Positions 2 through 33,858 of a DNA stretch of 64,000 nt are shown here, in pieces. The stretch is from a virus, in the IMG/VR virus record IMGVR_UViG_3300005805_000051, positions 1-64,000 of that record. The stretch is one strand, 5' to 3'. Position 1 is the first letter of the stretch. Every line of letters starts with the position of its first letter. The notes under the pieces were generated by a model that worked only from the letters and a program-made list of their open reading frames with translations, did no database searches and was not told the origin of the DNA. A program made the translations under genes and the position numbers.

Positions 2-637
2 TTGCTGTTGTTCCCACTGCTCTGCATAAGTTTTCGCAAGGGCATGCTGCGATTCAATCACCGCGAGATGACCCTGTGCTTGCTGAAGCAGGTCTTTGGT
101 TTCGGTGAGGCGCCCCTTGAGGAGGGCATGCATCATGGAAAAAACTTCAATGTCGAGGACATCTTCCAAGATATCGCGTCGTGCTTGCGGGGTCAACCGC
201 ATAAATGGCACATACGACGATGCACCGAGAATCACGACTTGCGTAAACGCTTTGTAGTTGCACTTGAGAATATACTTCTCCAAGTGGTCTTGCATCTCGT
301 TTGCGCTCGGAAGCGCCTCAATCGGTTTTCCATCACAAAGAATATCAAACACACTGGGTTTGATGCCACGCCGCACGACATAGCGATGACTCTGCGTCGT
401 GAACTCGACTTCGACCACGAGTTCCTTTTGGTTCACGCTATTGATAATCGATGGCTTGTTGATATTCCGAAACGGCTTACCGTACAACGCAAAACACAAC
501 GCGTCCAGCACGGTGGTTTTCCCTGCACCGTTCTGCCCGACAATCAAGGTATGCGGATGTGAGTCCAGTGGCGTTTTTGTCCACGCATTACCAGTGGCGA
601 GGAAGTTCTTATATTTTATGGAGTGAAAAGTCAGCAT
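2..637 (-). CDS. gp46: Recombination endonuclease ATPase subunit (SbcC/Rad50-like); the 3' part runs off the window edge
   Basis: Not in the ORF track. Hand translation from ATG 637 gives MLTFHSIKYKNFLATGN...IVGQNGAGKTTVLDALCFALYGKPFRNINKP (Walker A). It follows gp47. Confidence 0.95.
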   Translation of the reverse strand, partial: MLTFHSIKYKNFLATGNAWTKTPLDSHPHTLIVGQNGAGKTTVLDALCFALYGKPFRNINKPSIINSVNQKELVVEVEFTTQSHRYVVRRGIKPSVFDILCDGKPIEALPSANEMQDHLEKYILKCNYKAFTQVVILGASSYVPFMRLTPQARRDILEDVLDIEVFSMMHALLKGRLTETKDLLQQAQGHLAVIESQHALAKTYAEQWEQQQ

Positions 638-8661: not shown

Positions 8662-8714
8662 TACTGTATTCTCCTAAAGTAAAGTAAATAACTAACGGTG
8701 AATGAGCGTCTTGG

Positions 8715-10280
8715 TTACCGAGAGAACTTCTCCGCCGCTTGAATATACGCATTCACAGGCGTCTTCGAAGGCTGCTTCTCTTCAAACAAGGGTGCAGCAT
8801 CGGGCACATTCATCGGTCGCTCCCCCGATGTCTTGGCCCCTGAGTACTGCTCCCGCAAGGCAACCAAATCCTTCTTGAAGGTCTTGGTGTTCGCGAACGT
8901 CAGCGACTCGGCGCGCTTTGCGAACTGACCGCGTTCTGCCGCGGGAAGGACGCTTGCAGCCTCAGCGATGAGGCGTGCTTTATGCTCACGCACGAGAGCT
9001 TGACGTTCACGATTGACGGCGGTCTTCATCTCCGCATGGAGTTGTACCGCACGAGCTTCCGACTCTTGCACTTGCTGCTTCAGCGTCTTCACATTCTTTG
9101 CAAGAGCTTCCACGACATTGACGCGCGACTCCGGCACTTCAATGTAGTGCTTCTTGAACAGGTCTTTCAGACCGTTGATGAAGTTCTCCGACAGCTTGTT
9201 ACGGAGTTGCGTCCGTACCGTGGTGCGGTTTTCCTTCACCCACTGCTCGACCACATAGCTCAGATACTGATCTACCTGCTTTGCAGTCTTCGCTTCGAAC
9301 ACCTTCTGACTCAGCGCGAGCTTGCGCTCACTCAGCGACTTCAGGTTCTTGTAACGGGCACTGTACGCCTCGTGCAACTGGGCACCGATATCCTGTGCCA
9401 TTGCACGAACGGTTGCTTCAAACAACCGGCGTGACTGCTGCTTCTCTTCCTCAGTCAGTGTCTGGTTGTTCTCGAAGAGCTTGTTTGCATCACCAAACTT
9501 CAGCGAGACGCGAATCTTGCCTTCGGACATCATCTCGTCCTCGGCCTTCTTCAACTCGTCCTCTTCTTCAGCGAGCTTCTCTTCGTCCTCGTCCTCTTCT
9601 TCAGCAACGAGTTCGTCCTTCTTCTCGTCCTCGTCATGCTCTTCTTCGGACATGAGTTCGTCGTGCTTCTCGTCCTCGTCCTCTTCCTTCATCTTATAAC
9701 CTTCAGCAAACGGCATCTTCTTCTTCTCGTCCTCGTCCGCTTCATCCGCAGACATCTCATCTTCTTCAGCCGCGAAGTCGAGTTCGTCCTCGTCCTCAGC
9801 CTCGTCTGCTACTTCTTCCACATCTGCGTCGCCGAGTTCCACCATTTCAGTGTCGTCGTCCGCAAGGTCTGCCAAATCGAGGTCAAGGACATCTTCATCT
9901 TCTCCGTCGAGTTCGGCAAGGACTTTTTCGTCCTTGTCGTCTTCGTCGTCTTTGTCGTCGACTTTCTCGGCATCGTCTTCCTCCTCTGGAAGCTCTTTCG
10001 GTTCGTCCTCGGATTCCATCTCCTCGGACTTGACATCCATCTCATCGGACGGATCGTCATCTTCCTCGCTCATCTTGTGAACGGGTTCCGCCGGCACACC
10101 CGCCTTCGGAAGAATGGTCATGTCGGGACTCACCCCCGACGCCGCGTCAAACTTGAAGTTTGCATAGTTCGCCGTTGACCAATCGGGAGTGGGTCCACCC
10201 ACATCCTGCACATCGGCGTGTGAGGGAACCATCGGTTCCTGTTTGCCCGCAACTGAAAGTAGTTCCTTCTGTGATGCCAT
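8715..10280 (-). CDS. gp22: Prohead core scaffolding protein with a long acidic N-terminal region
   Basis: VDQYLSYVVEQW.KEN and ENFINGLKDLF..HYIEVPE motifs; lies between gp21 and gp23. Confidence 0.9.
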   Translation of the reverse strand: MASQKELLSVAGKQEPMVPSHADVQDVGGPTPDWSTANYANFKFDAASGVSPDMTILPKAGVPAEPVHKMSEEDDDPSDEMDVKSEEMESEDEPKELPEEEDDAEKVDDKDDEDDKDEKVLAELDGEDEDVLDLDLADLADDDTEMVELGDADVEEVADEAEDEDELDFAAEEDEMSADEADEDEKKKMPFAEGYKMKEEDEDEKHDELMSEEEHDEDEKKDELVAEEEDEDEEKLAEEEDELKKAEDEMMSEGKIRVSLKFGDANKLFENNQTLTEEEKQQSRRLFEATVRAMAQDIGAQLHEAYSARYKNLKSLSERKLALSQKVFEAKTAKQVDQYLSYVVEQWVKENRTTVRTQLRNKLSENFINGLKDLFKKHYIEVPESRVNVVEALAKNVKTLKQQVQESEARAVQLHAEMKTAVNRERQALVREHKARLIAEAASVLPAAERGQFAKRAESLTFANTKTFKKDLVALREQYSGAKTSGERPMNVPDAAPLFEEKQPSKTPVNAYIQAAEKFSR

Positions 10281-10321
10281 ACGATCCTCGCTAATGGGGA
10301 TAAACCAACGCTAACCTTTAT

Positions 10322-11032
10322 TTAGCGTTGACGAATGTTTGACTGCACACCGCGACGTAATGCATTCAAATACTGGTTAAACGACTCCACGAACAACCCC
10401 TGCCGCGTCGCTGTGGACACAGTAGGTTTATGCGCGGCGTCGAGGGTTTGAGCCACGGCGTCGAGCGCACATTCTTTATACACACCACTCTCCCAGACCC
10501 ACGCTTTACCTTCCATAATACCACGCACAAATGCTTCGGGGGCTGAGGGGTCTGCAACAATATCCACCGTTGACAAGAAGAAATCATCTTGCACGAGCAT
10601 ACCGTCATTAGTATCCACGAGTGACCCAAGGCCACGCGTTGACACCCCAAGCTCACCGCCCTCGTCGATCAACGCCTTGACAATCTTACCCATCGGCGTC
10701 TCCGACATAATCTTCGCTTTACCGACGAAGTTCTTGCCTTCGCGCCGCATTTGCGTAATCATGTGAGAAACACGGTCCAGATTCACCGTGGGGCTATCAG
10801 GGTGCCCGAGTTCGCCGAAGGCGCGCTTGCGGTCAATATATTCCCGCTGATACCGTTGCATCTCACGGTCGAGCGTCTCCGAAGGATAGATGCGGCCGTT
10901 TTGATTCTTGACATCGCCTTGCATGAAGATGCCTTCGATGAAGTACGCACTCTTCCGACCCTGATGGGTTTCTTGATCTTCCACCAGCGTTCGCACATCA
11001 TGAATGGTTTCGGTAATAAGTCGTAATGCCAT
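10322..11032 (-). CDS. gp21: Prohead protease
   Basis: NQNGRIYP, GELGHP, GVSTRGLGS and DIVADPSAP motifs. Confidence 0.97.
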   Translation of the reverse strand: MALRLITETIHDVRTLVEDQETHQGRKSAYFIEGIFMQGDVKNQNGRIYPSETLDREMQRYQREYIDRKRAFGELGHPDSPTVNLDRVSHMITQMRREGKNFVGKAKIMSETPMGKIVKALIDEGGELGVSTRGLGSLVDTNDGMLVQDDFFLSTVDIVADPSAPEAFVRGIMEGKAWVWESGVYKECALDAVAQTLDAAHKPTVSTATRQGLFVESFNQYLNALRRGVQSNIRQR

Positions 11033-21939: not shown

Positions 21940-22794
21940 CTACACCGTCGACCATTTATCAGCTCCCACCGGCACCACAATACGACCATTATTTGCCCCA
22001 TCACATTTGATGGTGGCGTTTGCCGTGGTAGTCCCGCTCAACAATACTGTACTGCTGAAAGTCGCGGCCCCTGTGTGAGCAGAAGTAGAGAGCGCACTGA
22101 AGGCCCCACTTACTCCGAGGGTACTTGCTGTATTCATCGCACCCGTAACGGACACAGTATTACTGAGAGTGACCGCCCCGGTGATACCTACATTACTTAA
22201 TGCGTTTACCTGACCCGTAACACTGAGGGTGCTGTTCATGACTACCGCACCGGTCAGGGTGGAGTTCGCCAACGCGGTGAATACTCCAGTCACCCCGAGA
22301 GTACTCAGCGCATTCGCCGCCCCCGCAATACTGGCAGTATTGCTCATCGTGACCGCACCCGTCAACGTGGAGTTTGCGGATGCGGTAAAGACGCCAATGG
22401 CCCCTAATGTGCTAGCGGCGTTTACTGCACCGGTAAAGGTTTTTGCTCCAGCAAAACTTTGCGTCGTGGTATCCACCACACCATTTGCGCTGGTATTTGC
22501 TGACGAGAGTCGTTCAAGCGGTACCGTTCCAGACCCCAACGCGCTTGCATTCAGGGTAGTCAGGGAAACGCCGTTTCCTGAAAATGCTGTTGCGGTAACA
22601 TTCCCGGTTGCGTTCACGGTCGCAACGGTAAATGTTCCATTGAGTGTCGCGTTCGCGGTCGATACCCGAGGGGTCGCGTTCGTCGCTAGCTGTAAATAAG
22701 CTGCGGTGTTATCAACATGACTAGTTAGATTATTGGTTGCATCCAACCACACAAAGAATGTGTCGGTATTTGCAACAAAATTCGGTAATGGCAT
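21940..22794 (-). CDS. Fibre protein with low-complexity beta repeats, at the position T4 uses for wac
   Basis: The N-terminal ~55 aa match those of the 633-aa fibre; repeated NxxSTL.VTG units. The ATG at 22794 has a GAGGAG RBS. Confidence 0.75.
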   Translation of the reverse strand: MPLPNFVANTDTFFVWLDATNNLTSHVDNTAAYLQLATNATPRVSTANATLNGTFTVATVNATGNVTATAFSGNGVSLTTLNASALGSGTVPLERLSSANTSANGVVDTTTQSFAGAKTFTGAVNAASTLGAIGVFTASANSTLTGAVTMSNTASIAGAANALSTLGVTGVFTALANSTLTGAVVMNSTLSVTGQVNALSNVGITGAVTLSNTVSVTGAMNTASTLGVSGAFSALSTSAHTGAATFSSTVLLSGTTTANATIKCDGANNGRIVVPVGADKWSTV

Positions 22795-22881
22795 CTCCAC
22801 TCCTCTTCGGAAACGGGCCGAGTGCGCGAATCCTTCATCCGCGCAGGTCTATGCCATATTTAGGGAAGCATCAATGTCCAC

Positions 22882-23940
22882 CTATGCGGGGGACGAGGTG
22901 CCCGTATTTAACGCTTTCTTTGCGAGTCGTTCCGCTTCCAATTCTTCGTTCGACTTGTGAGTTCCGTCAGGACGCAACATCCCTTCCTTTGCCAACCGAT
23001 CAAAAATATCCTTCATCGAGGTTGCTTGTTGTTCCTTATAAGCCGCGGCCCGTGCATAATTCTTTTCGTATTCTTCTGGCCCATAAGCTTGCTTGCAAAT
23101 AACCTTTGCGCGTTCTACAATACTTTCCCCCCACTCAAAGTAAGAATCAAGGAAATCTTTACCTTCCGGGGTATAACGAACATGCTTGCGGATTTCCACC
23201 AATCCATCCTCAATTTTGGGAATGTTCCCAATCAAATAATGAGAAGCGTTGATCAGATTGCCGGGAAGTTTTGCACACTGAATGTCGTTTTCTCCGAACA
23301 CAATCCACGAATAAATTGCTTGAATGACCGCTGACATCGGACGCTTTTTGTCGCGACGGATCGGTGAATCGTAGAGTTCTTCGCTTGTATTGAGAATTAA
23401 AGAATAGTCGTGGTCATCGATATCCATACCCAGTGCTTCCAGCCGTGCATGACCGACTTCGTGATAAATGCCTTCCGCACACCCTTGCATGCTATTAATG
23501 GTCACATACACCGCGTTGACAAACATGCCTTCTTCTTTGCGGTGGGTCTTAGTCGCACTTTTCATTTCAAAATGACCCGACGAACATCCGTTCGCCCCCT
23601 CCCCCATAATCTTTGACCATTTGGGCCAGAATTCATCGAGAAAAAGTTTGAGCATGAGATGCCCGTCTTCCCATGTCCGTAAGTAGGGGTCAAGATTGGC
23701 GGCAATTTCAGGTGTCCAACGGTCATACCCATCCAACATGGGGTCATCGGGGGGAACCAAGGCTGGGTCAACTAAGGGATCGCGCACAACGGCAACTTCT
23801 CCGTCACAAATCGTAAACTTTGAGGTTGGTTTTCGTTTTGTCCAGCCGTATTTTTGATTCAAAAGATACGCAATTGCGTGGGAATCATAACCGTCAGGTT
23901 GAGGTTTACATACGCGCTTCCAGTCAATTTTCATGATCAC
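22882..23940 (-). CDS. HExxH-motif peptide-modifying enzyme (aKG-HExxH-like beta-hydroxylase)
   Basis: AEGIYHEVGHARL followed by YDSPIRRDKKRPMSAVIQAIYSW, the SP.R...RP signature of RiPP-associated HExxH proteins. Late promoter at 23951-23957. Confidence 0.8.
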   Translation of the reverse strand: MIMKIDWKRVCKPQPDGYDSHAIAYLLNQKYGWTKRKPTSKFTICDGEVAVVRDPLVDPALVPPDDPMLDGYDRWTPEIAANLDPYLRTWEDGHLMLKLFLDEFWPKWSKIMGEGANGCSSGHFEMKSATKTHRKEEGMFVNAVYVTINSMQGCAEGIYHEVGHARLEALGMDIDDHDYSLILNTSEELYDSPIRRDKKRPMSAVIQAIYSWIVFGENDIQCAKLPGNLINASHYLIGNIPKIEDGLVEIRKHVRYTPEGKDFLDSYFEWGESIVERAKVICKQAYGPEEYEKNYARAAAYKEQQATSMKDIFDRLAKEGMLRPDGTHKSNEELEAERLAKKALNTGTSSPA

Positions 23941-23949
23941 TCTCCGTGT

Positions 23950-24546
23950 CTATTTAGTGCGTTCTATTGGAATCTGTGGCCGCTCCGCTTCGGAAATAAA
24001 CGACTGAATACTAACTCGTAACAATCGATTTGTCATCACCGGAGTGGTCATATGAAATTCATTTTTATCATTGTGGATCAGCATACCTTGTGTCGGCACC
24101 AAACTGTCCCATCGACCCGTTGACGCATTATGATATTGGAACAGTCCTCCACAAGTAATATCCCACTCAGGATTTGTGTAGATAGTGACTGTTTTTCGTT
24201 CTGTATCAATGGTTTCATCTTTCCCGTTGTCAAAATGACCGGGAATATACGATCCCTTCGTCCACACATACGCCATGATGCGTCCATGTTTGCCATCATT
24301 TACAAAAGTGGATCGTGAGTTACCCAGCCCCATACGGAAAAGATGCTCATACACTGCGTTGGTCAGTCGTTCATTTAACACCAAGCAAAACACTGGTGTA
24401 CTATCTCTGATGATATCAGAACGCCACGAATAATTTGACCACATAACCACCGGTTCGGTGTGACCGCAGGTCAAGACAATACTGGTCGCCCACCGATAGA
24501 CTTCATTACACAATTCTTTGGGAATAGCCGCAGGATATACAATCAT
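23950..24546 (-). CDS. 2OG-Fe(II) oxygenase (prolyl-4-hydroxylase-like)
   Basis: HFD (HxD), Y.N.EW....GG.F, distal H in FHMTTPV, and R.SIQ.F. Confidence 0.88.
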   Translation of the reverse strand: MIVYPAAIPKELCNEVYRWATSIVLTCGHTEPVVMWSNYSWRSDIIRDSTPVFCLVLNERLTNAVYEHLFRMGLGNSRSTFVNDGKHGRIMAYVWTKGSYIPGHFDNGKDETIDTERKTVTIYTNPEWDITCGGLFQYHNASTGRWDSLVPTQGMLIHNDKNEFHMTTPVMTNRLLRVSIQSFISEAERPQIPIERTK

Positions 24547-24573: not shown

Positions 24574-25860
24574 TTAAAAACCAGTTTCTGGCTTATCAAT
24601 ATGGGTGATATCGTTGTGTGAATCGACATGCGCGGTGTCAGTGTGCGCGTCTGAGTGGGAATTACTGAAGGCAATATCTGTATGGGCGTCCGAATGGGAA
24701 TTACTGAACGCAATGTCGGTATGAGCATTCGAGTGCGAATTGCTAAATGCAATGTCGGTGTGTGCGTCTGAGTGTGAATTACTAAAGGCGCGGTCAAAAT
24801 GAGCATCCGAGTGGGAGTTATTGAACGCGCGATCAAAATGAGCATTCGAATGTGACGACCCAAACGCGATGTCGTAATGGGCGTTTGAATGCGACGAACT
24901 AAATGCGCGGTCGTAATGAGCATTCGAATGTGAACTGCCAAACGCGATATCATAATGCGCGTTTGAAAACGCTTGGTCGTAATGTAAATAGAAGAATCCG
25001 TCAATATGAAACGGTTGCCACGGACCAGAACCGTAACATATGAATCCATAATTGGGCCCACCCGGCCATGGCACATTAGAGAACCCCGGATAGCCCCACG
25101 GTGCTAAGTTAGTACCATTGTAACAATTATTGTCGGCATATCCATCGAAGTGCGAAGAACTGAATCCAATATCACTGTGCGATGACCCAAACGCGATGTC
25201 GTAATGGGCGTTTGAATGCGACGAACTAAATGCGATATCGTAATGGGCGTTTGAATGCGACGAACTAAATGCGATATCGTAATGGGCGTTTGAATGCGAA
25301 TTACTAAACGATATATCGGTGTGTGCGTTAGAGTGCGACGAACTAAAGGCAATATCTGTATGGGCATTCGAATGTGAACTGCTGAAGGCCCGATCAAAAT
25401 GAGCATCCGAATGGGAGTTACTGAACGCAATATCCGTATGCGCGTCCGAATGGGAGTTACTAAATGCGATGTCCGTATGGGCGTCTGAATGTGAGTTACT
25501 AAACGCAATATCCGTATGAAGGTCTGTATGCGGAGTATCGTTATGCACCCAGAACTCGTTGCCGCTTTCTGCAAGATAATGTAGCTGGCCGGCCGGCGTC
25601 GACGGCGCATAAGATGTTTCTACCCACACCGATCCTGCAAGTCCCGGTGTTGCTCCGATGAACGGCCCGTCGACATAGCGTTCGACGCCAGTGGAATCGA
25701 TGTAATGAATCGTGTTTGACTCAATCCATAAGCTTCCCTGCAACGCGCCGGCCGGAGTGGCGACCGTGGTGCCAAGAAACCGATATTCTGTATTGGATGA
25801 GTTGCGCCAATGTAGGTAGGTTGACTCTACCCACATTGACCCATTGGATTCATTTGCCAT
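24574..25860 (-). CDS. His/Asp/Ser 13-aa repeat protein A (putative virion needle/fibre and modification substrate)
   Basis: Three GS.W.E N-terminal modules, about 17 H(T/Y/F)DIAFSNSHS(D/N)A units split by a unique centre, and a DKPETGF C-terminus. Late promoter 5 nt before the ATG. Confidence 0.85.
   Translation of the reverse strand: MANESNGSMWVESTYLHWRNSSNTEYRFLGTTVATPAGALQGSLWIESNTIHYIDSTGVERYVDGPFIGATPGLAGSVWVETSYAPSTPAGQLHYLAESGNEFWVHNDTPHTDLHTDIAFSNSHSDAHTDIAFSNSHSDAHTDIAFSNSHSDAHFDRAFSSSHSNAHTDIAFSSSHSNAHTDISFSNSHSNAHYDIAFSSSHSNAHYDIAFSSSHSNAHYDIAFGSSHSDIGFSSSHFDGYADNNCYNGTNLAPWGYPGFSNVPWPGGPNYGFICYGSGPWQPFHIDGFFYLHYDQAFSNAHYDIAFGSSHSNAHYDRAFSSSHSNAHYDIAFGSSHSNAHFDRAFNNSHSDAHFDRAFSNSHSDAHTDIAFSNSHSNAHTDIAFSNSHSDAHTDIAFSNSHSDAHTDTAHVDSHNDITHIDKPETGF
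24640..25520 (-). repeat. 39-nt coding tandem repeats in two arms
   Basis: The periodic units differ mostly at synonymous positions; interrupted at about 24980-25150. Confidence 0.9.
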
Positions 25861-25872: not shown

Positions 25873-27246
25873 TTACCGATTCAAACGAATTACTCCGACA
25901 GCTACTCCCTTGGCAGCATCAGTGTGCGTCACGAGCAACTTGTCATTTGGCAGTCCCATCGCTTGTACCCACTCTTCTAGCGATTTCTTTTCCAAATTAT
26001 CCCCATACACGTATACGATGTGTATTGGGCAAGTTTTCAGAGCTTCTAATCCTGCAAATCGGGGTTCTTCGGACATCTCCACGAATCGCACCGGGCAATA
26101 CACCGGTACTGGTGACTCAAACTTTGTTAGTTCATTATACCATCCGAGATTTTCTAGCGCATCCACAACCCACGTTCCTACACCCACCGCTTGTGCGTCC
26201 TTGATGGCGTCTTCGTTCACATCCACCCCGAAGAGGTTCACATCCGGGCGATGCAACTTGATACGACGCAGTAAATGACCATTCCCACATCCTAGATCGA
26301 CCAGCGCGGCGTTTTCAGGAGCAAATTCTTTGACAGTATCAATAATTGGGGAATGCGCTTGACGCATTGCCGCAAAAGAGGCGAAACCATTTTGAAGCCA
26401 AATTTTCTTAGTCGGCTTCACATACCGACCCTTACGTTCAAAGTGTCGTTTTGCCCGAGGCGGAGCCCAATCCGTGCGCGTCGACACCTTGATGCACGGT
26501 CCGACAATTTCCGCAATCCCATTGACTCCGCTCCACTTCGTTGGCCATGATAACACCGTATCAATCGTATGTGCGATTTCGACGTATCCACGGCGCTGCG
26601 CCATCTGACGCATCTGACGCCCGAGTTCGACCGTGTGTTTACACTGATACGAACACGGTAGATGCGACACCCACCGAATCCCCTTCCACCGCCACAGCAT
26701 ATTCGCTTCGACGGGACCGTCTGCAACCCCCGTGGTCGCGAACTGATTCCATGTCGTATCTACCTGACCGGAACCCCATGTATTCAGAAAGAATTGACGG
26801 CAACACTCGGGATAGCCGAGAATCTCTCCGAGCGCCGCATCATTCTTTGCTAAGTTTGATACGGTTGCAATCTTTGCGACCATTTCAGGGCGCGTGATAA
26901 TCACCCGATAATCCCACGGTTGTGATGGATCAAATCCGTCATTTGAACCTGACCGATAAGACGTAGTGCGATTAATCTGCGTAATCGGAACAACAATCAA
27001 TCCATGCGTCGACGCCCACGTAGAGAGTTCCATGAATCTCTCCGGTGACGCCACTTGATAAGTCGCGGGGCGAATCCCATCCACCACAGACCAACGTTCC
27101 AGTTCTTCCCATGACTGGCTCACCTGTTCAAACAACGGCATCCAATAATCACGTTCAGTCAACGATGACCACGCCCAGCGTGTCCACTCTGGCAATACAG
27201 GTCGGTTCGGGTCAAGTTCAGTAGAAATATTGATCGTTTCACTCAT
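25873..27246 (-). CDS. Fusion of a Cys-motif N-terminal domain and a class I SAM-dependent methyltransferase
   Basis: LGYPECC and HLPCSYQC in the N-terminal half; LVDLGCGNG and GVDVNE in the C-terminal half. Confidence 0.8.
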   Translation of the reverse strand: MSETINISTELDPNRPVLPEWTRWAWSSLTERDYWMPLFEQVSQSWEELERWSVVDGIRPATYQVASPERFMELSTWASTHGLIVVPITQINRTTSYRSGSNDGFDPSQPWDYRVIITRPEMVAKIATVSNLAKNDAALGEILGYPECCRQFFLNTWGSGQVDTTWNQFATTGVADGPVEANMLWRWKGIRWVSHLPCSYQCKHTVELGRQMRQMAQRRGYVEIAHTIDTVLSWPTKWSGVNGIAEIVGPCIKVSTRTDWAPPRAKRHFERKGRYVKPTKKIWLQNGFASFAAMRQAHSPIIDTVKEFAPENAALVDLGCGNGHLLRRIKLHRPDVNLFGVDVNEDAIKDAQAVGVGTWVVDALENLGWYNELTKFESPVPVYCPVRFVEMSEEPRFAGLEALKTCPIHIVYVYGDNLEKKSLEEWVQAMGLPNDKLLVTHTDAAKGVAVGVIRLNR

Positions 27247-27254
27247 AATTAATC

Positions 27255-29198
27255 CTATCGTTTTGCGAGATCAGTATGATCGCCGTGTGGAATATCTCCA
27301 TGCCAGTTTCGCGGGGTAATGTTTGATTCTTCTCTTCCGATATCAAAATGATCTCCGTGGGAACGCTCCACAACTTCCACATCTTCATGTGAATCGCCGT
27401 GCGGAATATTCACGGGTGTTTGCAATAACGCAGTATCTGTGTGATCCCCGTGCGGAATATTCTTTGGAGCGTCAAGTAACGCAGCATCGATATGGTCACC
27501 GTGTGGAATATTCTGTATTTGATTCGCAATCATCAAGTCGGTATGATCACCGTGCGGAATATATTCCGTTCTATTCACAATAGCCGAATCTGTATGATCC
27601 CCGTGTGGAATATTTTGCGGCTCATTTAGGAAGGACGCATCCGTATGATCCCCGTGTGGAATATCTTCAGATTTGTCCAGAATAAATGTATCGGTATGAT
27701 CGCCGTGAGGAACTGTTTGGACAGACAAATCGGTGTGATCCCCGTGCGGTATGTGTGGAATACTGGCATCTGTATGGTCAATGTAGTTATCCGCGTGACC
27801 GGGATGCTCTCCCGTTTGCTGGTGTTGCTCCACAGTCATCTGCTCCCGTTGCTGGAGGTCGAATTGCAACATCGCCACATCTGTATGATCCCCATGCACT
27901 CCGTTTCGACGAATCGATTCAGATTGCATGACATTCACTAATTTTGAATATGCCCGATTCCAATTGCCTTGCGATTCATTGGCAATTTGTATTGCATGAG
28001 CGACATCAATTTCTCCCCCGCGCTCCCATGTCGTATACATGATCGTTTCAATGAGCGGCCGCTGCGGGCTTAATGACAGGGGTTCGTCCCCAACGGCGAC
28101 TAATCGACGCTCGACTTCTTCAAACTGCGATTTGAGTGTTGCACAATGCGAGGATTTCAGACGCCAGTCACCGTCCTTCGTATCGAACGGGACTCCCGTA
28201 CCGGGACAATATCCTTGACACATCAACCAGAACCGGCATCCTTTGCACCCACCATCTTCTTCGGGGGTAACATACAATGAAAGCTGCCGTTCATGAAAAC
28301 GATTGGTCTTAAATTGTGTAATCTGCCATTGACTTTCTTGTCCCGACCCCTCAGACGGCAACCAATCTTTCCCGTCTTTGATGCCACGTGTACAGTTTGA
28401 AGGTTCTCCTTCATTTCCAAGTCCTTGCACCGCAGCGGTACTCCACGGGTCGCAGGCTTTCCAAACGCACATGGACGCGGAATCTTTTCCGCGCAAAAGG
28501 TCAATCAATTCTTCAAAATTCAAGAACTTCAAACTTTTGAGTTCTTCGGTCATCTCCCATAGTTCTACCATGACTTTTGTGATTTGCTCATCTGGCAAGT
28601 AGAACTTCTCGGCGTTGTAATCCATTTCCATGAAATGAATGTTGATGAAGCTGACCCCGATACTATCCAGATAGCGAATCCATTCCTTCATCCGCGGCCA
28701 GCGTTCTTCTGACGCGTTGCCCGCATGGAGCGTCACAATCATAGTCGGACCGATGTTACGATCACCGGTTTCTCGGGCGATTCGTGCAATCTCTTCCACC
28801 GCCCATTCACTCTTTGCGGTTGCGTTCCGTGTCGCTTCGAGCGTTCCCGCCCACCGGGAATCGTTGAGTTCACCGGGACCGTCCATACTGATCCCGACTT
28901 GTGTGCGATACTTCTGAAACAGTTCGATGTGCTTTGGGGTGATGAGGGTTGCATTGGTTTGCAGACCCGTGTAGCCCCACTTCTCATATCCGGCCTTCAA
29001 GAGTTCTTCCAACTCTTCAAACCGAATCAGCAACGGTTCACCACCAAATAACTGCCAAAATCCTTGCGACGTTTTAATGGCTTGCATCACTGCTTCGCGA
29101 TTATACTTCGAAACCGGTTGCACATCACGCGCCGCCTGCTCGTAACAGTATTCGCAACGCAAATTGCAAGTTACCCCAACCGGGAGGACTTCAATCAT
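27255..29198 (-). CDS. Radical SAM/SPASM maturase 2 with a long IPHGDHTD-repeat tail
   Basis: CNLRCEYC, FGGEPL, ISMDGP...ND.R and SPASM-type CKGCRFWLMCQGYCP motifs. Confidence 0.93.
   Translation of the reverse strand: MIEVLPVGVTCNLRCEYCYEQAARDVQPVSKYNREAVMQAIKTSQGFWQLFGGEPLLIRFEELEELLKAGYEKWGYTGLQTNATLITPKHIELFQKYRTQVGISMDGPGELNDSRWAGTLEATRNATAKSEWAVEEIARIARETGDRNIGPTMIVTLHAGNASEERWPRMKEWIRYLDSIGVSFINIHFMEMDYNAEKFYLPDEQITKVMVELWEMTEELKSLKFLNFEELIDLLRGKDSASMCVWKACDPWSTAAVQGLGNEGEPSNCTRGIKDGKDWLPSEGSGQESQWQITQFKTNRFHERQLSLYVTPEEDGGCKGCRFWLMCQGYCPGTGVPFDTKDGDWRLKSSHCATLKSQFEEVERRLVAVGDEPLSLSPQRPLIETIMYTTWERGGEIDVAHAIQIANESQGNWNRAYSKLVNVMQSESIRRNGVHGDHTDVAMLQFDLQQREQMTVEQHQQTGEHPGHADNYIDHTDASIPHIPHGDHTDLSVQTVPHGDHTDTFILDKSEDIPHGDHTDASFLNEPQNIPHGDHTDSAIVNRTEYIPHGDHTDLMIANQIQNIPHGDHIDAALLDAPKNIPHGDHTDTALLQTPVNIPHGDSHEDVEVVERSHGDHFDIGREESNITPRNWHGDIPHGDHTDLAKR
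27270..27900 (-). repeat. HGDHxD repeat tail, mostly 17-aa period
   Basis: Ten HGDH(T/I/F)D motifs plus variants in the translation. Confidence 0.9.
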
Positions 29199-29199
29199 G

Positions 29200-30705
29200 T
29201 TAGTTCTCCATCTTCAGGAGCGCATCATCCACATGATCACCATGCGGAATATTTAATATACCCGCATCGGTATGATCGCCATGTTCGTCACCGTGCGGTA
29301 TAATTCCCGAACCAAAATCCTGATGCGACTCGTTATCTGAATGCATCGCATCCGTGTGATCCCGATGTTCATCCCCATGCGGACGGCTTCCTGTCGATGC
29401 AGGAACAAGATGACTCCCGTCATAATGATCGCCGTGACCAAACCCATACTGATCGATATCTTGTTCACGGAGTTGCCCGTTGAAAATCTTAATCGCGGTA
29501 CTCATCTCACACGCACGACCCTGCGTCCACGCGCGATACATGATTGCTTCAATTTCTTTGCGTTGCGGGTGCAACGACATCGGCGTTTCTCCCAACAGCT
29601 TCAGTCGTCGCTCCCCTTCGGTAAACAGTCCCATCCATGTTTGACAGTAGCTTGACCGCAGACGCCAATCCCCGACCCCGCTTTCTTGACTTGCGTCTCC
29701 CTCACCGGGGCACTGCCCTTTACACATCATCCAGAACCGGCAATCCTTGCAACCCCCCTCTTCTTGTGGAGTCACATACAGCGAAAGCTGTCGCTCGTGA
29801 TGACGTTGACCTTCGAAAGTACCGATTTCCCATTTTGCGTGACGACCCGCACCCTCGGCCGGTAGCCAATCAATCCCGTCTTTATTCGTGCGAGAGCAAT
29901 GGGAGGGCGACCCGTCCCCTTCGAGCCCCTGCACGGCGGAAGTATTCCACGGGTCACAGGAGTGCCATGTACACATGACATTCTCATCTTTTGCGCGAAG
30001 CAGTTCAATAATCGCACGGAAGTTGACTACCTTTGCGTTTTTGAACTTGCTGCTCAAATCCCAAAGCTGTAACAGCGCATCCATCAACTCTTCATGCGGG
30101 AGATACCATTCGTTTGCTTGGTAATCCATCTCCATTGTATGAAAGTTGAAATTGAGCATACCTTTTTCATCAAGGTCAATCAACCACTGCTTCAACCGAG
30201 GCAACTTATCTTTTGCAGCATTTCCCGCATGCAATGTAATGATCAGGCTCGGCACCATGTGCTTGTTGTTCACCTTCTTTGCACGTTCCAACAGCAGATC
30301 GATTGCGCGTTCAGACTTCGCGGTTGCCTTGCGCGTGGCTTCTAAGGTACCGGCCCACCGGGAATCGTTGAGTTCGCCGGGCCCGTCCATACTGATACCC
30401 ACATGTGTGTTGTATTTTTCGAAGAGGTCAACATGCCGCTCAGTGATGAGGGTGGCGTTCGTTTGGACGCCGGTGCTGCCAAACTTCTTGTAACCAATGT
30501 CGAGCAGTTCTTCGAGATGATGGAGCGGTAGCAGGAGAGCTTCGCCTCCAAAGAGTGACCACTGCCCGGTGGACTTATCGATCTGGGCAAGAACGGCCTC
30601 GCGGTTATATTTGTGAACCGGCTGCACATCACGCATCGATTGCTCATAGCAATAGGTACAACGCAAATTGCAGGTCACGCCTACAGGTCGAACTTCAATA
30701 CTCAT
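29200..30705 (-). CDS. Radical SAM/SPASM maturase 1 with a short HGD/HTD tail
   Basis: CNLRCTYC, FGGEAL and CKDCRFWMMCKGQCP motifs; tandem paralogue of 27255-29198. Confidence 0.93.
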   Translation of the reverse strand: MSIEVRPVGVTCNLRCTYCYEQSMRDVQPVHKYNREAVLAQIDKSTGQWSLFGGEALLLPLHHLEELLDIGYKKFGSTGVQTNATLITERHVDLFEKYNTHVGISMDGPGELNDSRWAGTLEATRKATAKSERAIDLLLERAKKVNNKHMVPSLIITLHAGNAAKDKLPRLKQWLIDLDEKGMLNFNFHTMEMDYQANEWYLPHEELMDALLQLWDLSSKFKNAKVVNFRAIIELLRAKDENVMCTWHSCDPWNTSAVQGLEGDGSPSHCSRTNKDGIDWLPAEGAGRHAKWEIGTFEGQRHHERQLSLYVTPQEEGGCKDCRFWMMCKGQCPGEGDASQESGVGDWRLRSSYCQTWMGLFTEGERRLKLLGETPMSLHPQRKEIEAIMYRAWTQGRACEMSTAIKIFNGQLREQDIDQYGFGHGDHYDGSHLVPASTGSRPHGDEHRDHTDAMHSDNESHQDFGSGIIPHGDEHGDHTDAGILNIPHGDHVDDALLKMEN

Positions 30706-30741: not shown

Positions 30742-31938
30742 TTAGAACCCTGTCTCTGGTTTGTCGACATGTGCCACATCGGAGTGCGTATCCGTATGAA
30801 GGTCGGTGTGGGTATCCGTGTGCGCGTTGTTGAATGCGATGTCATAATGCGCGTCAGAATGCGAGTTACTGAAGGCAATATCCGTATGAGCATCCGAATG
30901 CGAGTTACTGAAGGCAATATCCGTATGAGCATCCGAATGTGAGTTACTGAAGGCAATGTCCGTGTGCGCGTCTGAATGCGATGATGCAAACGCGATATCA
31001 TAGTGTGCGTCCGAGTGCGACGACACGAATCCAATATCATAGTGGGCATTTGAGTGCGATGACGCGAATCCAATATCATAGTGGGCATTTGAGTGCGATG
31101 ACCCAAACCCAATATCGTAGTGTTCATCCGTGTGAGAACTGGCAAATGCTTGATATGGCGGCCCATAGTCATTGTAATAATCCGAATGCCCGGGATCGTA
31201 GGGGCCACCACCATTATCAATATATTCATCACCATGACTATTATCAAATGGTATATCATAATGATCGTCAGCATGTGAATTAGAAAATGCGATATCATAG
31301 TGGGCATCCGAATGTGATGACCCAAAGGCGATATCATAATGAGCATTTGAATGTGACGACGCAAACGCAATATCGTAATGAGCATTCGAATGTGACGACC
31401 CAAACGCAATATCGTAATGCGCGTCGGAGTGGGAATTGCTAAACGCACGGTCAAAATGAGCATCCGAGTGCGAGTTGTTAAATGCAATATCCGTGTGGGC
31501 GTTTGAGTGCGAATTACTGAACGCAATATCCGTATGGGCGTCTGAGTGTGAGTTGCTGAACGCGATATCGGTATGCACATCCGAGTGCGTGATCACGGAG
31601 GTGTCAGTGTGCAAGTCCGTGTGTGCGATGTCATCATGGGCATAGCGTTCTGCCCCTGACGCATCAACCCAGTGGAACCCACTGGCATGTGGAGAGGTGC
31701 TATCGGCCCAGATTGACCCTTGCGTTGCTCCTGCGGGTGACGCGACGGTCGGCCCGTAGACATAGCGTTCCGTGCCTGATTCGTCGATGTAGTGGAAGTT
31801 GTTGCTTTCCACCCAGATACTTCCCTTTGTGGCGCCGGCCGGCGTCGCGACCGAGGTACCTAAGAACCGATACTCGGTGTTACTTGCGTTCCGCCAGTGA
31901 AAGTAAGTGCCTTCAACCCAAATAGAGCCGTTCGCCAT
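30742..31938 (-). CDS. His/Asp/Ser 13-aa repeat protein B (paralogue of A)
   Basis: Same GSIWVE modules, about 17 repeats, a different centre and the same DKPETGF end; directly follows the tail fibre gene. Confidence 0.85.
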   Translation of the reverse strand: MANGSIWVEGTYFHWRNASNTEYRFLGTSVATPAGATKGSIWVESNNFHYIDESGTERYVYGPTVASPAGATQGSIWADSTSPHASGFHWVDASGAERYAHDDIAHTDLHTDTSVITHSDVHTDIAFSNSHSDAHTDIAFSNSHSNAHTDIAFNNSHSDAHFDRAFSNSHSDAHYDIAFGSSHSNAHYDIAFASSHSNAHYDIAFGSSHSDAHYDIAFSNSHADDHYDIPFDNSHGDEYIDNGGGPYDPGHSDYYNDYGPPYQAFASSHTDEHYDIGFGSSHSNAHYDIGFASSHSNAHYDIGFVSSHSDAHYDIAFASSHSDAHTDIAFSNSHSDAHTDIAFSNSHSDAHTDIAFSNSHSDAHYDIAFNNAHTDTHTDLHTDTHSDVAHVDKPETGF

Positions 31939-31956: not shown

Positions 31957-33858
31957 CTATGGTTGTAGTGTAGCACGAAGTGCTGCAACTTCCGCAGACA
32001 ATTCTTTGATTGCTGCAACCAGATATGGCACTAATCCTTGATATGCCATGACTTTAGCATCGTTGAGGTCTTCGGATTCAATTGTGTGAACTAATTCGGG
32101 GAAGACCCGTTCTACATCTTGAGCGATAAGGAATGACCGCGTAACATCCGCGTCATCACCCGTGAACCGCCCCATCACCGTGCGAAGAGTCTGTAGTCGT
32201 GAAGTGGCGTTTGAAATTGGCTCAGTTAAAATCTTTGTCCGTTCATCGGACATCGCCGACCAAGCGGTGGCCCCATTAACTAACTGGACACCACCAGAAC
32301 CCCCAACCCCCGGATTTGCATACGCTCGTAGTACTGGAGCGGCCCCTGTACCATAGACATCAATGACCCATGCGTGCGCCTGATCCGAGGCGCGTTCCCA
32401 TCTAATCTCCCCACCTTCGATCGATGTATCTCCGCGACGCAACACAAACCCGGTTGATACACCTTCATACGCGACGGTGGCGGTCGTAGCAGAAGAGGCG
32501 CTTCCCGCACTTCCCGTGATGTTGATGCCCCATGTTCCAGAAGCTCCAGCTCCGCCGGTGGAAGGCGCACCCACCGTGTTGTAACTGATGGTCTTACCCG
32601 CACTTCCATTATAGCTGGTGCCTGATGCCTCACCAGCACCACCATTGTTAAATATGATGGCGTTGGATACTTGAGTTGCTTGCGCCGCGGTCGTCGCACT
32701 AGTGGCGGTCGTGGCGGTTGTGGCACTTCCCGCACTTCCCGTAATATTAATGCCCCAAGTTCCAGAAGCCCCAGTTCCGCCCGTGGAAGGCGCGCCTACC
32801 GTATTATAACTGACCGTGATAGCTCCCGATCCATTATACGTCGTCCCTGACGCGGCTCCACTTCCTCCGTTGTTGAAGGTTACCGCGTTGAGGTTGCTTC
32901 CAAGTGTAACACCTGAAATGGTTGAGGCTGCGAGCTTACTGACAGCAATCGCAGCACTCCCGCTGATGTCTGCGTTAACGATACCTCCCGTCAACGACAA
33001 CTTACTATATGCAATCGCCGCGGAGGCGCTGACGTCTCCATTGACAATCGTACCATCAGCAATCATTGAACTTGTAACTTTTCCTGCCCCAATGGTAGTC
33101 GCTCCAGTACCAGAGATGGTCACATCCCCGGACATAGCAAGAGCTTCAATCCCACCGGTCGCATTCCCTAGTAACAACCGACCGGCGCTAGTGGTCGCCA
33201 GCTTGTCGTGCGACAACGATCCGGCAGCAATCCGTGCGGCGGGCAAAGTACCATTTGAAATATTACTTGCGTTAACCGTCGTAATGTTGATGCCGTTTCC
33301 GGTCAGGAATCCCGCAGCTCCTGCGCTTACATTCGACGTCGCATAGATGTTGACTGCGTTCATGTTACCAGCAGTGGCCGTCACATTCCCTGACGCAGTA
33401 ATGGTGCCAGATGCAGTGATGAACCCCGTGGCGATGACATTCCCGGTCGCGACATTGCCGGTCGCACTGATAGTCGTGGTGTTCAGTGCAGTCGTGTTGA
33501 CATTCTGTGTCGCGGTGATGTTCAACGCACCCGTGATGTTCGCGCTCAGTACCAAGTTGCGCGTCACCGACAAGGAGTTGCTCATCGTCACATCACCGGT
33601 AATCGCCACATTCGCATTAAACGTCGCAATGCCGTTGATGGTCGTATTTCCGTTAACGGACAGTACATTACTGGTCGTCAGATTGACAATCGTTGCAGTC
33701 CCATTCAGACTAACATTGCCAGTTGAAACGCTCGGAGTCGCATTCTGTGCAACCTGCAAATAGACGCTCGTGTTCGCAACATGGCTAATGAGATTATTTG
33801 TCGCATCAAACCATGTATTGAAACTATCGGTCGTCTGAATAATGGAAGGTAACGGCAT
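31957..33858 (-). CDS. Tail fibre with a C-terminal intramolecular chaperone (peptidase S74-like)
   Basis: SDERTK cleavage motif, IAQDVERVFPELV, Y..LVPYLVAAIKEL coiled coil, and an internal ~60-aa duplication. Confidence 0.9.
   Translation of the reverse strand: MPLPSIIQTTDSFNTWFDATNNLISHVANTSVYLQVAQNATPSVSTGNVSLNGTATIVNLTTSNVLSVNGNTTINGIATFNANVAITGDVTMSNSLSVTRNLVLSANITGALNITATQNVNTTALNTTTISATGNVATGNVIATGFITASGTITASGNVTATAGNMNAVNIYATSNVSAGAAGFLTGNGINITTVNASNISNGTLPAARIAAGSLSHDKLATTSAGRLLLGNATGGIEALAMSGDVTISGTGATTIGAGKVTSSMIADGTIVNGDVSASAAIAYSKLSLTGGIVNADISGSAAIAVSKLAASTISGVTLGSNLNAVTFNNGGSGAASGTTYNGSGAITVSYNTVGAPSTGGTGASGTWGINITGSAGSATTATTATSATTAAQATQVSNAIIFNNGGAGEASGTSYNGSAGKTISYNTVGAPSTGGAGASGTWGINITGSAGSASSATTATVAYEGVSTGFVLRRGDTSIEGGEIRWERASDQAHAWVIDVYGTGAAPVLRAYANPGVGGSGGVQLVNGATAWSAMSDERTKILTEPISNATSRLQTLRTVMGRFTGDDADVTRSFLIAQDVERVFPELVHTIESEDLNDAKVMAYQGLVPYLVAAIKELSAEVAALRATLQP

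Follow-up and report, generated by a model that had tools for sequence, protein, structure and literature searches.

In the 64,000-nucleotide stretch of viral DNA analysed here (the window), two paralogous repeat proteins, A and B, are encoded on either side of genes for radical SAM enzymes, raising the question of what such proteins do for a phage and why they should be accompanied by this chemistry. We consider it probable that A and B are distal fibre pieces, each folded back on itself as a hairpin of small motifs, or beads, whose triplets are modified by the co-encoded radical SAM/SPASM enzyme set. Translation of the two genes reveals a common order (Table 1): an N-terminal domain with three copies of the pattern 'GSxWxE...HY.D..G.E', nine 13-residue units, a centre, eight 13-residue units and a terminal KPETGF, confirming the nine-centre-eight count that a first-pass annotation had made from the sequence for both paralogues. 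The first nine units start at residue 115 in A and 122 in B, and the last eight at residues 302 and 273. In A, whose N arm has the unit string P R8 Q Q, arms of 134 and 138 residues place the tip at the midpoint of the array, and the earlier description of this centre as rich in aromatic residues, Gly and Pro with two Cys also holds, as Cys246 and Cys275 both fall in a 45-residue stretch that has no HxD motif. The centre of B, ~31 residues long, is not alignable to that of A.

Table 1 Coordinates of proteins A and B, their parts and the surrounding genes in the window
Feature	Position	Strand	Basis or remark
Fibre-like protein (286 aa)	21940..22800	minus	ends ...VPVGADKW; likely proximal partner of HxD proteins
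HExxH protein (352 aa), aKG-HExxH peptide beta-hydroxylase-like	22882..23940	minus	TIGR04267 6e-7, below cutoff
2OG-Fe(II) oxygenase-like protein (198 aa)	23950..24546	minus	Pfam PF13640 1.9e-5, just under cutoff
Protein A (428 aa)	24574-25860	minus	translation
A C-terminal tail KPETGF and stop codon	24574..24594	minus	predicted docking onto N-domain
A returning (C) arm, aa 285-422	24595..25008	minus	partial units, eight 13-aa units, short HxD units
A tip, aa 240-284	25009..25143	minus	45 aa, Gly/Pro/aromatic-rich, without HxD
A outgoing (N) arm, aa 106-239	25144..25545	minus	one 9-aa HxDxxHxDx unit, nine 13-aa units, partial unit
A N-terminal domain, aa 1-105	25546..25860	minus	three GSxWxE beta-hairpin repeats; anchor domain
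DUF483 domain fused to class I SAM methyltransferase (457 aa)	25873..27246	minus	Pfam PF04467 2e-4, PF13847 1e-6
Radical SAM/SPASM enzyme 2 (647 aa)	27255..29198	minus	ten HGDH motifs in tail
Radical SAM/SPASM enzyme 1 (501 aa)	29200..30705	minus	Pfam PF04055 1e-12
Protein B (398 aa), paralogue of A	30742-31938	minus	scaffold as in A
B N-domain, aa 1-100			
B N arm, aa 101-237			
B tip, aa 238-268			
B C arm, aa 269-392			
B tail			KPETGF
Tail fibre protein (633 aa)	31957..33858	minus	S74 chaperone domain at C terminus; next gene upstream of B; Pfam PF13884, PHROG tail fibre families

Unit types are graded symmetrically about the centre, with HTD and HSD mostly in outer units and HYD and HSN in inner ones, as the first-pass annotation had seen. 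Unit residue 2 reads TTTFTTYYY in the N arm of A and YYYFFTTT in the C arm, the corresponding strings in B being TTTFYYYYY and YYYYTTTY, and residue 12 of A reads DDDNNNNND followed by NNNDDNDD. When units were paired in mirror order, A averaged 11.25 identities per 13 residues and B 11.29, with P values of 0.09 and 0.0006, respectively, from shuffles within arms, and direct-order pairing in the two proteins gave 9.0–10.3; on these shuffles, therefore, the mirror signal within the window alone is modest for A and clear for B. Units with identical peptides differ at 5.7–6.5 of 39 nucleotides (~15% synonymous divergence), which indicates an array of long standing whose protein sequence has been conserved, and not a product of recent slippage.

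The relatives of A and B, which form at least 901 protein clusters at 50% identity, extend the mirror beyond the window. First, in a midpoint test that placed the longest HxD gap of 66 family representatives against gap-order shuffles, mean arm asymmetry was 0.28 versus 0.50 ± 0.036, and asymmetry fell below 0.1 in 27 of the 66 (6.5 expected; maximum 17 in 5000 shuffles); the longest gap lies off-centre in about a third of the representatives, partly from tips that themselves contain HxD. Second, length changes are matched between arms. The homologs L005b and L006b, of 510 and 484 residues, differ by exactly one 13-residue unit on each arm, and L003p and L004p, 44 residues apart, fit the loss of about one 9-residue plus one 13-residue unit per arm. 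Third, unit strings are mirror-complementary, running Q5 P4 R.. into the centre and ..R Q4 P5 out of it in L005b, and Q P4 R.. and ..R Q5 in L003p. Fourth, HxD beads coincide only in mirror order across 28 representatives (z = −1.73, p = 1e-7; direct order, 0.04), a register whose anchor point is arbitrary without coordinates. The first-pass proposal that the variable centre is the tip is likewise supported, the centre having diverged more than any other region in each comparison of two relatives. At the other end of the chain, the tail Pro is invariant in alignment A1, and the tail tends to be found in proteins that have the W-repeat domain (Fisher p = 9e-8). Collectively, these comparisons establish the sequence anatomy, mirror architecture and tip variability by an indirect route, and lend good, if indirect, support to A and B being long two-armed antiparallel hairpins with a fast-evolving tip at the turn. 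A pentapeptide-repeat or other regular solenoid was rejected, as no single coil geometry accommodates periods of 9 and 13 together with irregular spacing of 3–7 residues, and the HxD arrays match none of the repeat families in Pfam.

Structure prediction speaks to the two ends of the hairpin. The AlphaFold2 (AF2) model of A, built on an 11-sequence alignment, resolves only the N-domain (pLDDT ~80). For the homolog P0080, the N-domain reaches pLDDT 93–97 and contains every strand other than a C-terminal one at residues 226–229 (pLDDT 89); structural alignments of this model are blade-like and span residues 4..230, and from these ranges and the DSSP assignment the C-terminal strand is predicted to pack against the N-domain. 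The arms of the monomer models (pLDDT 27–56) have no secondary structure and are uninformative, neither supporting nor refuting a needle. Such a result would be natural if the arms did not pair and were instead disordered His/Asp-rich spacers or metal sponges, their mirror being a by-product of array growth around an inserted centre, and the weak mirror signal of A in the window points the same way. Tandem duplication, however, yields direct and not mirror order; matched indels, mirror-complementary unit types and a family-wide mirror register are unexpected for spacers; and unit peptides have stayed identical while their codons diverged. We therefore regard unpaired arms as quite improbable and retain the paired hairpin.

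Several observations suggest that this hairpin belongs to a tail fibre. By Pfam and PHROG assignments, the A and B genes sit between fibre genes. Homologs of the 286-residue fibre-like protein are encoded directly upstream of the HxD gene in loci L003–L006, and its VPVGADKW motif marks the junction in one-chain homologs. Natural fusions in a single chain also join HxD proteins to fibre heads, a virion structural protein family or Laminin_G. In L037, L008, L007 and L015 the HxD gene has a tail fibre or minor tail gene as its upstream neighbour, and in the Thermus phage Cumys the gene two places upstream encodes a tail collar fibre. From this context and the rapid evolution of the tip we infer that A and B are tail-fibre-type proteins of an uncultured T4-like phage. 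Pfam and PHROG scans of A and B themselves matched no fibre-tip family; Pfam hits to Lysostaphin_N and DUF6150 had no scored stretch, were nearly all below cutoff and were read as compositional matches to the repeats.

The linkage to radical SAM enzymes recurs across loci. A DUF483 gene and a gene for a radical SAM/SPASM enzyme resembling anSME are present in 14 of 14 related loci with readable flanks, 13 of them found through the radical SAM enzyme and one, L038, through the HxD protein, and an HxD-rich ORF adjoins both genes in all 13 and in L038. The triad is seen in L005–L015, L037 and L038, whereas the contigs of L003 and L004 do not extend far enough to tell if they encode the enzymes, and HExxH homologs adjoin the HxD protein in L003–L007 and L038; a related-locus search started from P0051 returned no locus. 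In the window, enzyme 1 has a CxxxCxxC motif at 12–19, a SPASM-type Cys cluster and an HGDH tail at its C terminus. Its nearest solved structure is anSME (4k36, 5e-14), and its best NCBIfam match, AmcB, scores 68.8 bits against a cutoff of 425. More generally, the best NCBIfam matches of the radical SAM enzymes, AmcB and anSME, reach 65–69 bits where the cutoffs are 350–425, and against the named cyclophane synthase families the enzymes fall far below every cutoff. By sequence, the cassette radical SAM enzymes appear to constitute a new family.

The first-pass annotation treated an H-x-x-x-H site every 13 residues as the functional unit. This unit is not supported by comparison across the family, where the bead is an aromatic-x-Asp/Asn triplet with a variable spacing of 3–9 residues and where Phe and Tyr replace His: each is 5.2-fold enriched at the His position of beads, and F-x-N beads occupy H-x-D positions in register. 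Of array His residues, 97% have Asp or Asn at +2. Within the window, 43 of the 46 His of A and 44 of the 48 of B belong to H-x-D/N triplets (87 of 94 together). Each unit also has a third bead, overlooked in the first pass: outer units carry F-S-N, inner units F-S-S or F-G-S.

These features bear directly on the proposal that A and B are antiparallel metal needles modelled on T4 gp37. T4 gp37 is an out-and-back needle that holds seven iron ions on HxH motifs (Bartual et al. 2010; PMC6957217, PMC11705849). The likeness would lie in a fibre end whose chain goes out, turns at a receptor-binding tip and returns with a column of His-containing motifs along the shaft. A homotrimeric, six-stranded needle of this type, in which His and Asp of the outgoing and returning arms bind a metal column, with no covalent modification and with the enzymes serving elsewhere or aiding folding, would draw further support from the facts that His and Asp are classical metal ligands and that arm beads face each other in register. 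The out-and-back half of the proposal is indirectly supported by the midpoint test, matched indels, mirror register and AF2 tail strand. The iron half is not supported in the form proposed. In contrast to gp37, A and B contain no HxH motif, their beads are irregularly spaced and allow Phe-x-Asn and Tyr-x-Asp in register where Phe cannot bind metal, their arms are ~130–150 residues each, and the radical SAM/DUF483 set encoded with them in every readable locus would be needless for a self-assembling needle. Moreover, a PDB profile search found no solved fibre similar in sequence or profile, and gp37 itself has no detectable sequence or profile similarity to A or B. A gp37-like needle thus seems unlikely to us, although facing His/Asp pairs may bind metal in addition, which the data do not need.

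Enzymatic crosslinking of the beads offers a better fit to the same data. A triceptide crosslink is a C–C bond from an aromatic ring to a C-beta carbon, with a change of −2 Da per motif. Three-residue cyclophanes are made by the radical SAM/SPASM enzymes XncB, OscB, MscB, HaaB, YhhB, HtkB, ChlB and MicB (PMC11499958, PMC11002830, PMC12912966); proven triceptide motifs include F-x-N and His-x-X3 (PMC11002830, PMC11499958, PMC12912966), and aKG-HExxH enzymes hydroxylate Asp and His on cyclophane-bearing peptides (PMC12636437). Like triceptide RiPPs, A and B have repeated aromatic-X-X3 motifs next to radical SAM/SPASM genes, and an aKG-HExxH hydroxylase occurs in some triceptide clusters. Because the beads are aromatic-x-Asp/Asn, lack HxH and admit Phe and Tyr for His, and because the radical SAM/SPASM and DUF483 genes are invariably nearby, triceptide-type crosslinking of the beads appears likelier than simple metal sites. 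Other C-beta chemistry is also possible, since the radical SAM enzymes score below the cyclophane cutoffs and have anSME as their nearest solved relative.

The resemblance could be taken further by reading the locus as a RiPP gene cluster, with A and B acting not as virion parts but as multi-core precursors that are cut to release small modified peptides. Three-residue motif repeats do adjoin radical SAM/SPASM, HExxH, 2OG and methyltransferase genes here. Yet the cassette (21.9–33.9 kb) contains neither a protease nor an exporter, and A and B, unlike triceptide precursors, are ~400-residue fibre-type proteins (398–428 residues) with 40–50 motifs and a folded domain and have no leader-core peptide. 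Equal arms in mirror register, a predicted well-folded N-domain with a conserved C-terminal docking strand, and the position of the genes in tail-fibre blocks with fusions to fibre domains also speak against peptide release, to which we give almost no weight.

In the fibre model that we prefer, A and B would form the distal pieces of two tail fibres in a T4-like phage. A compact three-repeat beta domain would start each chain, from which the N arm would run outward to a variable Gly/Pro/aromatic turn, probably the host-contacting end; the C arm, of equal length, would come back antiparallel in bead-for-bead register, and the short conserved end strand would pack against the N-domain. The aromatic-x-Asp/Asn triplets that make up the arms, most of them His-x-Asp but with Phe-x-Asn and Tyr-x-Asp at in-register positions, would be substrates for the radical SAM/SPASM enzymes of anSME-like type and the DUF483 protein that accompanies them, joined in this cassette by the putative aKG-HExxH hydroxylase, 2OG oxygenase and methyltransferase. 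By analogy with triceptides, the most likely product would be a three-residue ring between the aromatic side chain and the C-beta of Asp or Asn, and rings of this kind would lend stiffness to a hairpin that otherwise lacks structure. We infer this crosslink chemistry, as we do the oligomeric state and any metal. Extending the model to the whole family, as a widespread class of fibre tips in which a self-pairing 'bead-coded' hairpin is cyclised bead by bead by a phage-encoded radical SAM pair, is a more tentative step, which we put a little short of even.

If this reading holds, there are several implications. The phage would possess a rigid needle of up to ~40 nm with two strands per chain and a swappable receptor-binding tip, a second solution, unrelated to gp37, to making a receptor-binding needle that is long and thin and whose chain goes out and comes back. 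The bead code would keep the arms in register, and needle length would change by matched unit indels. It would also be the first case found in which radical SAM chemistry like that of peptide antibiotics matures a virion protein, applying RiPP chemistry to a structural protein of the virus particle and giving 'RiPP' enzymes a broader role. Finally, an anchor, a tunable shaft and an exchangeable tip would make a modular scaffold that may be useful in receptor-binding protein engineering.

Among 50,697 deposited phage genomes, the HxD family was found in no more than two, the Thermus phages Cumys and phiMa, where tblastn matches are accompanied by synteny, and the family is accordingly hardly studied; a megablast search of deposited phages with the cassette found nothing. 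Cumys_13 resembles A and B in having an N-domain of three repeats, an aromatic centre flanked by HxD arms and a tail that contains Pro, Cumys_12 is a radical SAM enzyme 47% identical to enzyme 1 of the window, and Cumys_11 is a DUF483 protein. Unlike A and B, however, the Thermus protein has irregular spacing of 3–6 residues and no 13-mers, and the Cumys region examined has one radical SAM gene and no annotated HExxH, 2OG or methyltransferase gene. The only literature on the radical SAM/HxD module that we found, a 2024 Thermus phage preprint, regarded the HxD protein as one of unknown function and suggested that the module modifies DNA (bioRxiv 10.1101/2024.08.14.607894), an assignment for which fibre maturation, if correct, would substitute another explanation. 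As far as we found, a fold-back His-x-Asp fibre design is absent from published papers.

Fold searches with both AF2 models (A and P0080) gave nothing above Z 4.4, and the weak likeness of the N-domain to beta-prism II lectins (Z 3.9–4.4) serves as a lead only. The ESM Atlas held no usable neighbour, and a BFVD search gave one confident match, an unnamed 342-residue protein. A further parallel comes from the His-Xaa-Ser (Hxs) system of NCBIfam/TIGRFAMs, in which the repeat protein HxsA is accompanied by two radical SAM maturases. An NCBIfam scan of A and B matched no family and no HxsA-type model. Like the Hxs system, A and B are His-x-X repeat proteins encoded with paired radical SAM enzymes, whereas their repeats are HxD/N and their context is that of a phage fibre.

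The paralogous fibre-type proteins A and B very probably form out-and-back needles with a variable tip. Their translated sequences start with three 'GSxWxE...HY.D..G.E' repeats, followed by an N arm of nine 13-residue units of type HTDIAFSNSHSDA, a unique centre, a C arm of eight units, a few short HxD units and a KPETGF tail. Most His residues (43/46 in A, 44/48 in B) lie in H-x-D/N triplets, the commonest form of the aromatic-x-Asp/Asn triplets that we call beads. The centre of A comprises 45 HxD-free residues with abundant Gly, Pro and aromatics and two Cys; that of B (~31 aa) is unrelated to it. Unit types are ordered as the first-pass annotation described: residue 2 reads TTTFTTYYY / YYYFFTTT in A and TTTFYYYYY / YYYYTTTY in B (slash, centre), and residue 12 of A reads DDDNNNNND / NNNDDNDD. 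Each unit also has a third bead, which reads F-S-N in the outer units; the inner ones carry F-S-S or F-G-S instead. The symmetric gradient therefore runs through three positions rather than two (T to Y, N to S, D to N). Units paired in mirror order share 11.25 of 13 identities in A and 11.29 in B, and 9.0–10.3 when paired directly; shuffle P values are 0.09 (A) and 0.0006 (B). Judged from the window alone, mirror order carries moderate statistical weight. Units with the same peptide differ at ~6 of 39 nucleotides, so the array is of old origin and its protein sequence is under selection.

Positions of the fibre-type proteins, the neighbouring enzymes and related fibre-like genes
Feature	Record	Positions	Strand	Detail
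Protein A	window	24574-25860	minus	428-aa ORF
Protein B	window	30742-31938	minus	398 aa, paralogue of A
Graded third beads, A	window	24595-25545		
Graded third beads, B	window	30763-31638		
DUF483 region	window	25873-27246		Cys/His motifs GYPECC, HLPCSYQC
rSAM2 C-terminal tail	window	27255-27900	minus	ten HGDH(T/I/F)D motifs
rSAM1 C-terminal tail	window	29200-29500	minus	three HGDH(T/I/F)D motifs
Fibre-like protein	window	21940-22800	minus	ends ...VPVG(A/S)(D/N)(K/L)W
Fibre-like gene, same motif	L003	2-454		
Fibre-like gene, same motif	L004	1-762		
Fibre-like genes, same motif	L005	5361-6758; 13888-15048		
HxD/rSAM module	L037 (Limnochordales MAG JADBKP010000003.1)	7453-10674		

A profile built from A, B and nine metagenomic homologs matched 901 clusters (50% identity) with a cutoff of E<=1e-3 and 471 with the stricter E<=1e-10. 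Some members stand alone, as A does (180-350 aa); others are one-chain fusions whose fibre head, 'MAWT.P.TW..FN.QIRDN..LK ... VPVG.DK', leads directly into the three W repeats; and a third form, of ~1000 aa, has HxD arrays close to the C-terminus. Of the His residues in the retrieved proteins, 87% belong to HxD/N triplets, and most members with a W-repeat domain end in 'H.D.P..[VI]G[PT]'. Several large proteins (P0030, P0031, P0041, P0058 and others, ~800-1250 aa) have multiple HxD arrays without the W-repeat domain or Pro tail, and end in ...HGDIN or ...HGDLN; a Laminin_G_3 domain occurs in one of them. These large proteins may be built differently from the hairpin type.

A fold-back hairpin is supported as by far the simplest reading of five independent lines combined, which uphold the out-and-back topology originally proposed. 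First, the tip lies at the midpoint. With the tip defined as the longest HxD-free gap, mean arm asymmetry, the absolute value of N-C over (N+C), is 0.28 across 66 representatives versus 0.50+-0.036 with shuffled gap order; 27 proteins fall below 0.1, where 6.5 were expected and none of 5000 shuffles exceeded 17. Midpoint gaps are turn-like (GPG, VDGFP, GFTAPF) or larger aromatic/Gly/Pro/Cys domains. Second, indels are matched between arms: the homologs L005b and L006b (510 versus 484 aa) differ by exactly one 13-aa unit per arm, and the 44-aa difference between L003p and L004p (359 versus 315 aa) fits the loss from each arm of roughly one unit of 9 aa and one of 13 aa. Third, unit types (P, HxDxxHxDx; Q, HxDVSFVNx; R, 13-mer) run Q5 P4 R.. 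/ ..R Q4 P5 in L005b and Q P4 R.. / ..R Q5 in L003p, and L005a pairs a Q-rich N arm with a P9 C arm. Tandem duplication yields direct repeat order, and such mirror-complementary types therefore need selection for pairing. Fourth, in 28 symmetric representatives compared with token-order shuffles, HxD positions coincide between arms when the C arm is reversed (mean z -1.73, t=-7.2, p=1e-7) but not in direct order (z 0.04), mirror register being better in 21/28 (Wilcoxon p=8e-5). Finally, the chain appears to return. An AF2 model of the compact homolog P0080 (47-sequence alignment) has pLDDT values of 93-97 in the N-domain, 50-56 in the arms and 89 in the last ten residues, with a strand at 226-229; the remaining strands lie only in the N-domain, and many blade-like structural alignments of ~35 residues span positions 4..230. 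Tail and W-repeat domain also co-occur across the family (65/91 versus 8/39, p=9e-8). The three-repeat N-domain shows faint similarity, short of significance, to three-fold beta-prism lectins, which would allow either a trimer of hairpins or a single hairpin.

The centre, already noted as variable, is the most divergent region in every pair compared. Identities for N-domain, arms and tip are 100%, 97-98% and 86% between L005b and L006b, and 99%, 70-74% and 46% between L003p and L004p; A and B share 59% and 78-81%, and their tips are barely alignable. This pattern fits a tip that would serve as the receptor-contacting end inferred in the first-pass annotation.

The suggestion of gp37-like H-x-x-x-H metal sites every 13 aa is not supported in that form: triplet spacing across the family is 3 to 9 residues, A and B contain no HxH, and Phe or Tyr can replace His. 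To our knowledge, Phe cannot bind metal. D/N follows array His at +2 in 97% of cases (D 89%, N 8%). Two positions ahead of D/N, the non-His residues with the strongest enrichment are Tyr and Phe (5.2-fold each; all others <=1.9-fold), and N at +2 of Phe is enriched 4.7-fold. Unit Q is unit P with the second H-x-D swapped for F-x-N at unchanged spacing, and the middle bead of the 13-mer is F-S-N or F-S-S. The Tyr/Phe enrichment and these substitutions indicate that the bead unit is aromatic-x-Asp/Asn. Metal binding by facing His/Asp pairs, compatible with a ring crosslink, seems to us somewhat improbable.

The beads are likely to be enzymatically modified. Each of the 13 loci reached through radical SAM enzymes (L005-L015, the Limnochordales MAG and Thermus phage Cumys) encodes, next to the rSAM, a DUF483 protein and an ORF containing 9-71 HxD/N triplets; in L038, which was reached through its HxD protein, genes for rSAM, DUF483 and HExxH proteins lie downstream. 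Both enzymes of the window, rSAM1 and rSAM2, contain CxxxCxxC and a SPASM-type Cys cluster; their nearest solved structure is anSME, they miss every NCBIfam family cutoff by far, and rSAM1 shares 47% identity with its Thermus phage counterpart. In triceptides, defined by aromatic-X-X3, an rSAM/SPASM enzyme joins the aromatic ring to C-beta of residue 3, with proven links in Phe-x-Asn, Trp-x-Asn/Asp and, through His-C2, HAA, HNR, HTK and HAS (PMC11002830, PMC12912966, PMC11499958). The A/B family similarly combines aromatic-x-Asp/Asn beads with adjoining rSAM/SPASM genes, and by this analogy a triceptide-type ring would be the best specific guess, although one falling just short of probable. 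An HExxH gene adjoins the HxD gene in the window, L003-L007 and L038, an arrangement that would fit the known beta-hydroxylation of Asp and His by aKG-HExxH enzymes on peptides already carrying cyclophanes (PMC12636437). We found no published description of the hairpin architecture or of bead modification.

Genome-wide, the only HxD-rich ORFs are A, B and the tails of both rSAMs. Such tails, which may mimic or hold substrate arms, are frequent but not universal among rSAM homologs (0-24 HxD per enzyme); the Thermus phage enzyme ends in HGDYTDHGDAPHGDHWDG. The DUF483 region has no solved relatives, PDB matches being confined to the methyltransferase half.

The source phage, a single 109-kb contig, is a divergent T4-like myovirus whose TerL shares 52% identity with the TerL proteins of cyanomyoviruses and Pelagibacter phage Mosig. 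On the minus strand, a tail fibre with an S74 chaperone is followed by B, rSAM/SPASM 1, rSAM/SPASM 2, a DUF483-methyltransferase fusion, A, a 2OG oxygenase, an aKG-HExxH-like protein and a fibre-like protein ending VPVGADKW. Among 50,697 deposited phage genomes searched by tblastn with A and with its homolog P0016, only Thermus phages Cumys and phiMa match; their HxD homolog lies two genes downstream of a tail collar fibre gene, with genes for an rSAM and a DUF483 protein next in line. For this 'rSAM module', DNA modification was proposed (bioRxiv 10.1101/2024.08.14.607894). From position, fusions and neighbours, we consider it quite probable that A and B act as fibre parts. In the Limnochordales contig, probably a prophage, the module directly follows a tail fibre gene and comprises a short HxD protein, an rSAM, a DUF483 protein and a separate methyltransferase. 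The terminal motif of the window's fibre-like protein corresponds to the junction immediately ahead of the W repeats in one-chain homologs. Its gene lies downstream of the HExxH gene, whereas in relatives it is directly upstream of the HxD gene; thus, the two genes look like a split fibre with rearranged gene order.
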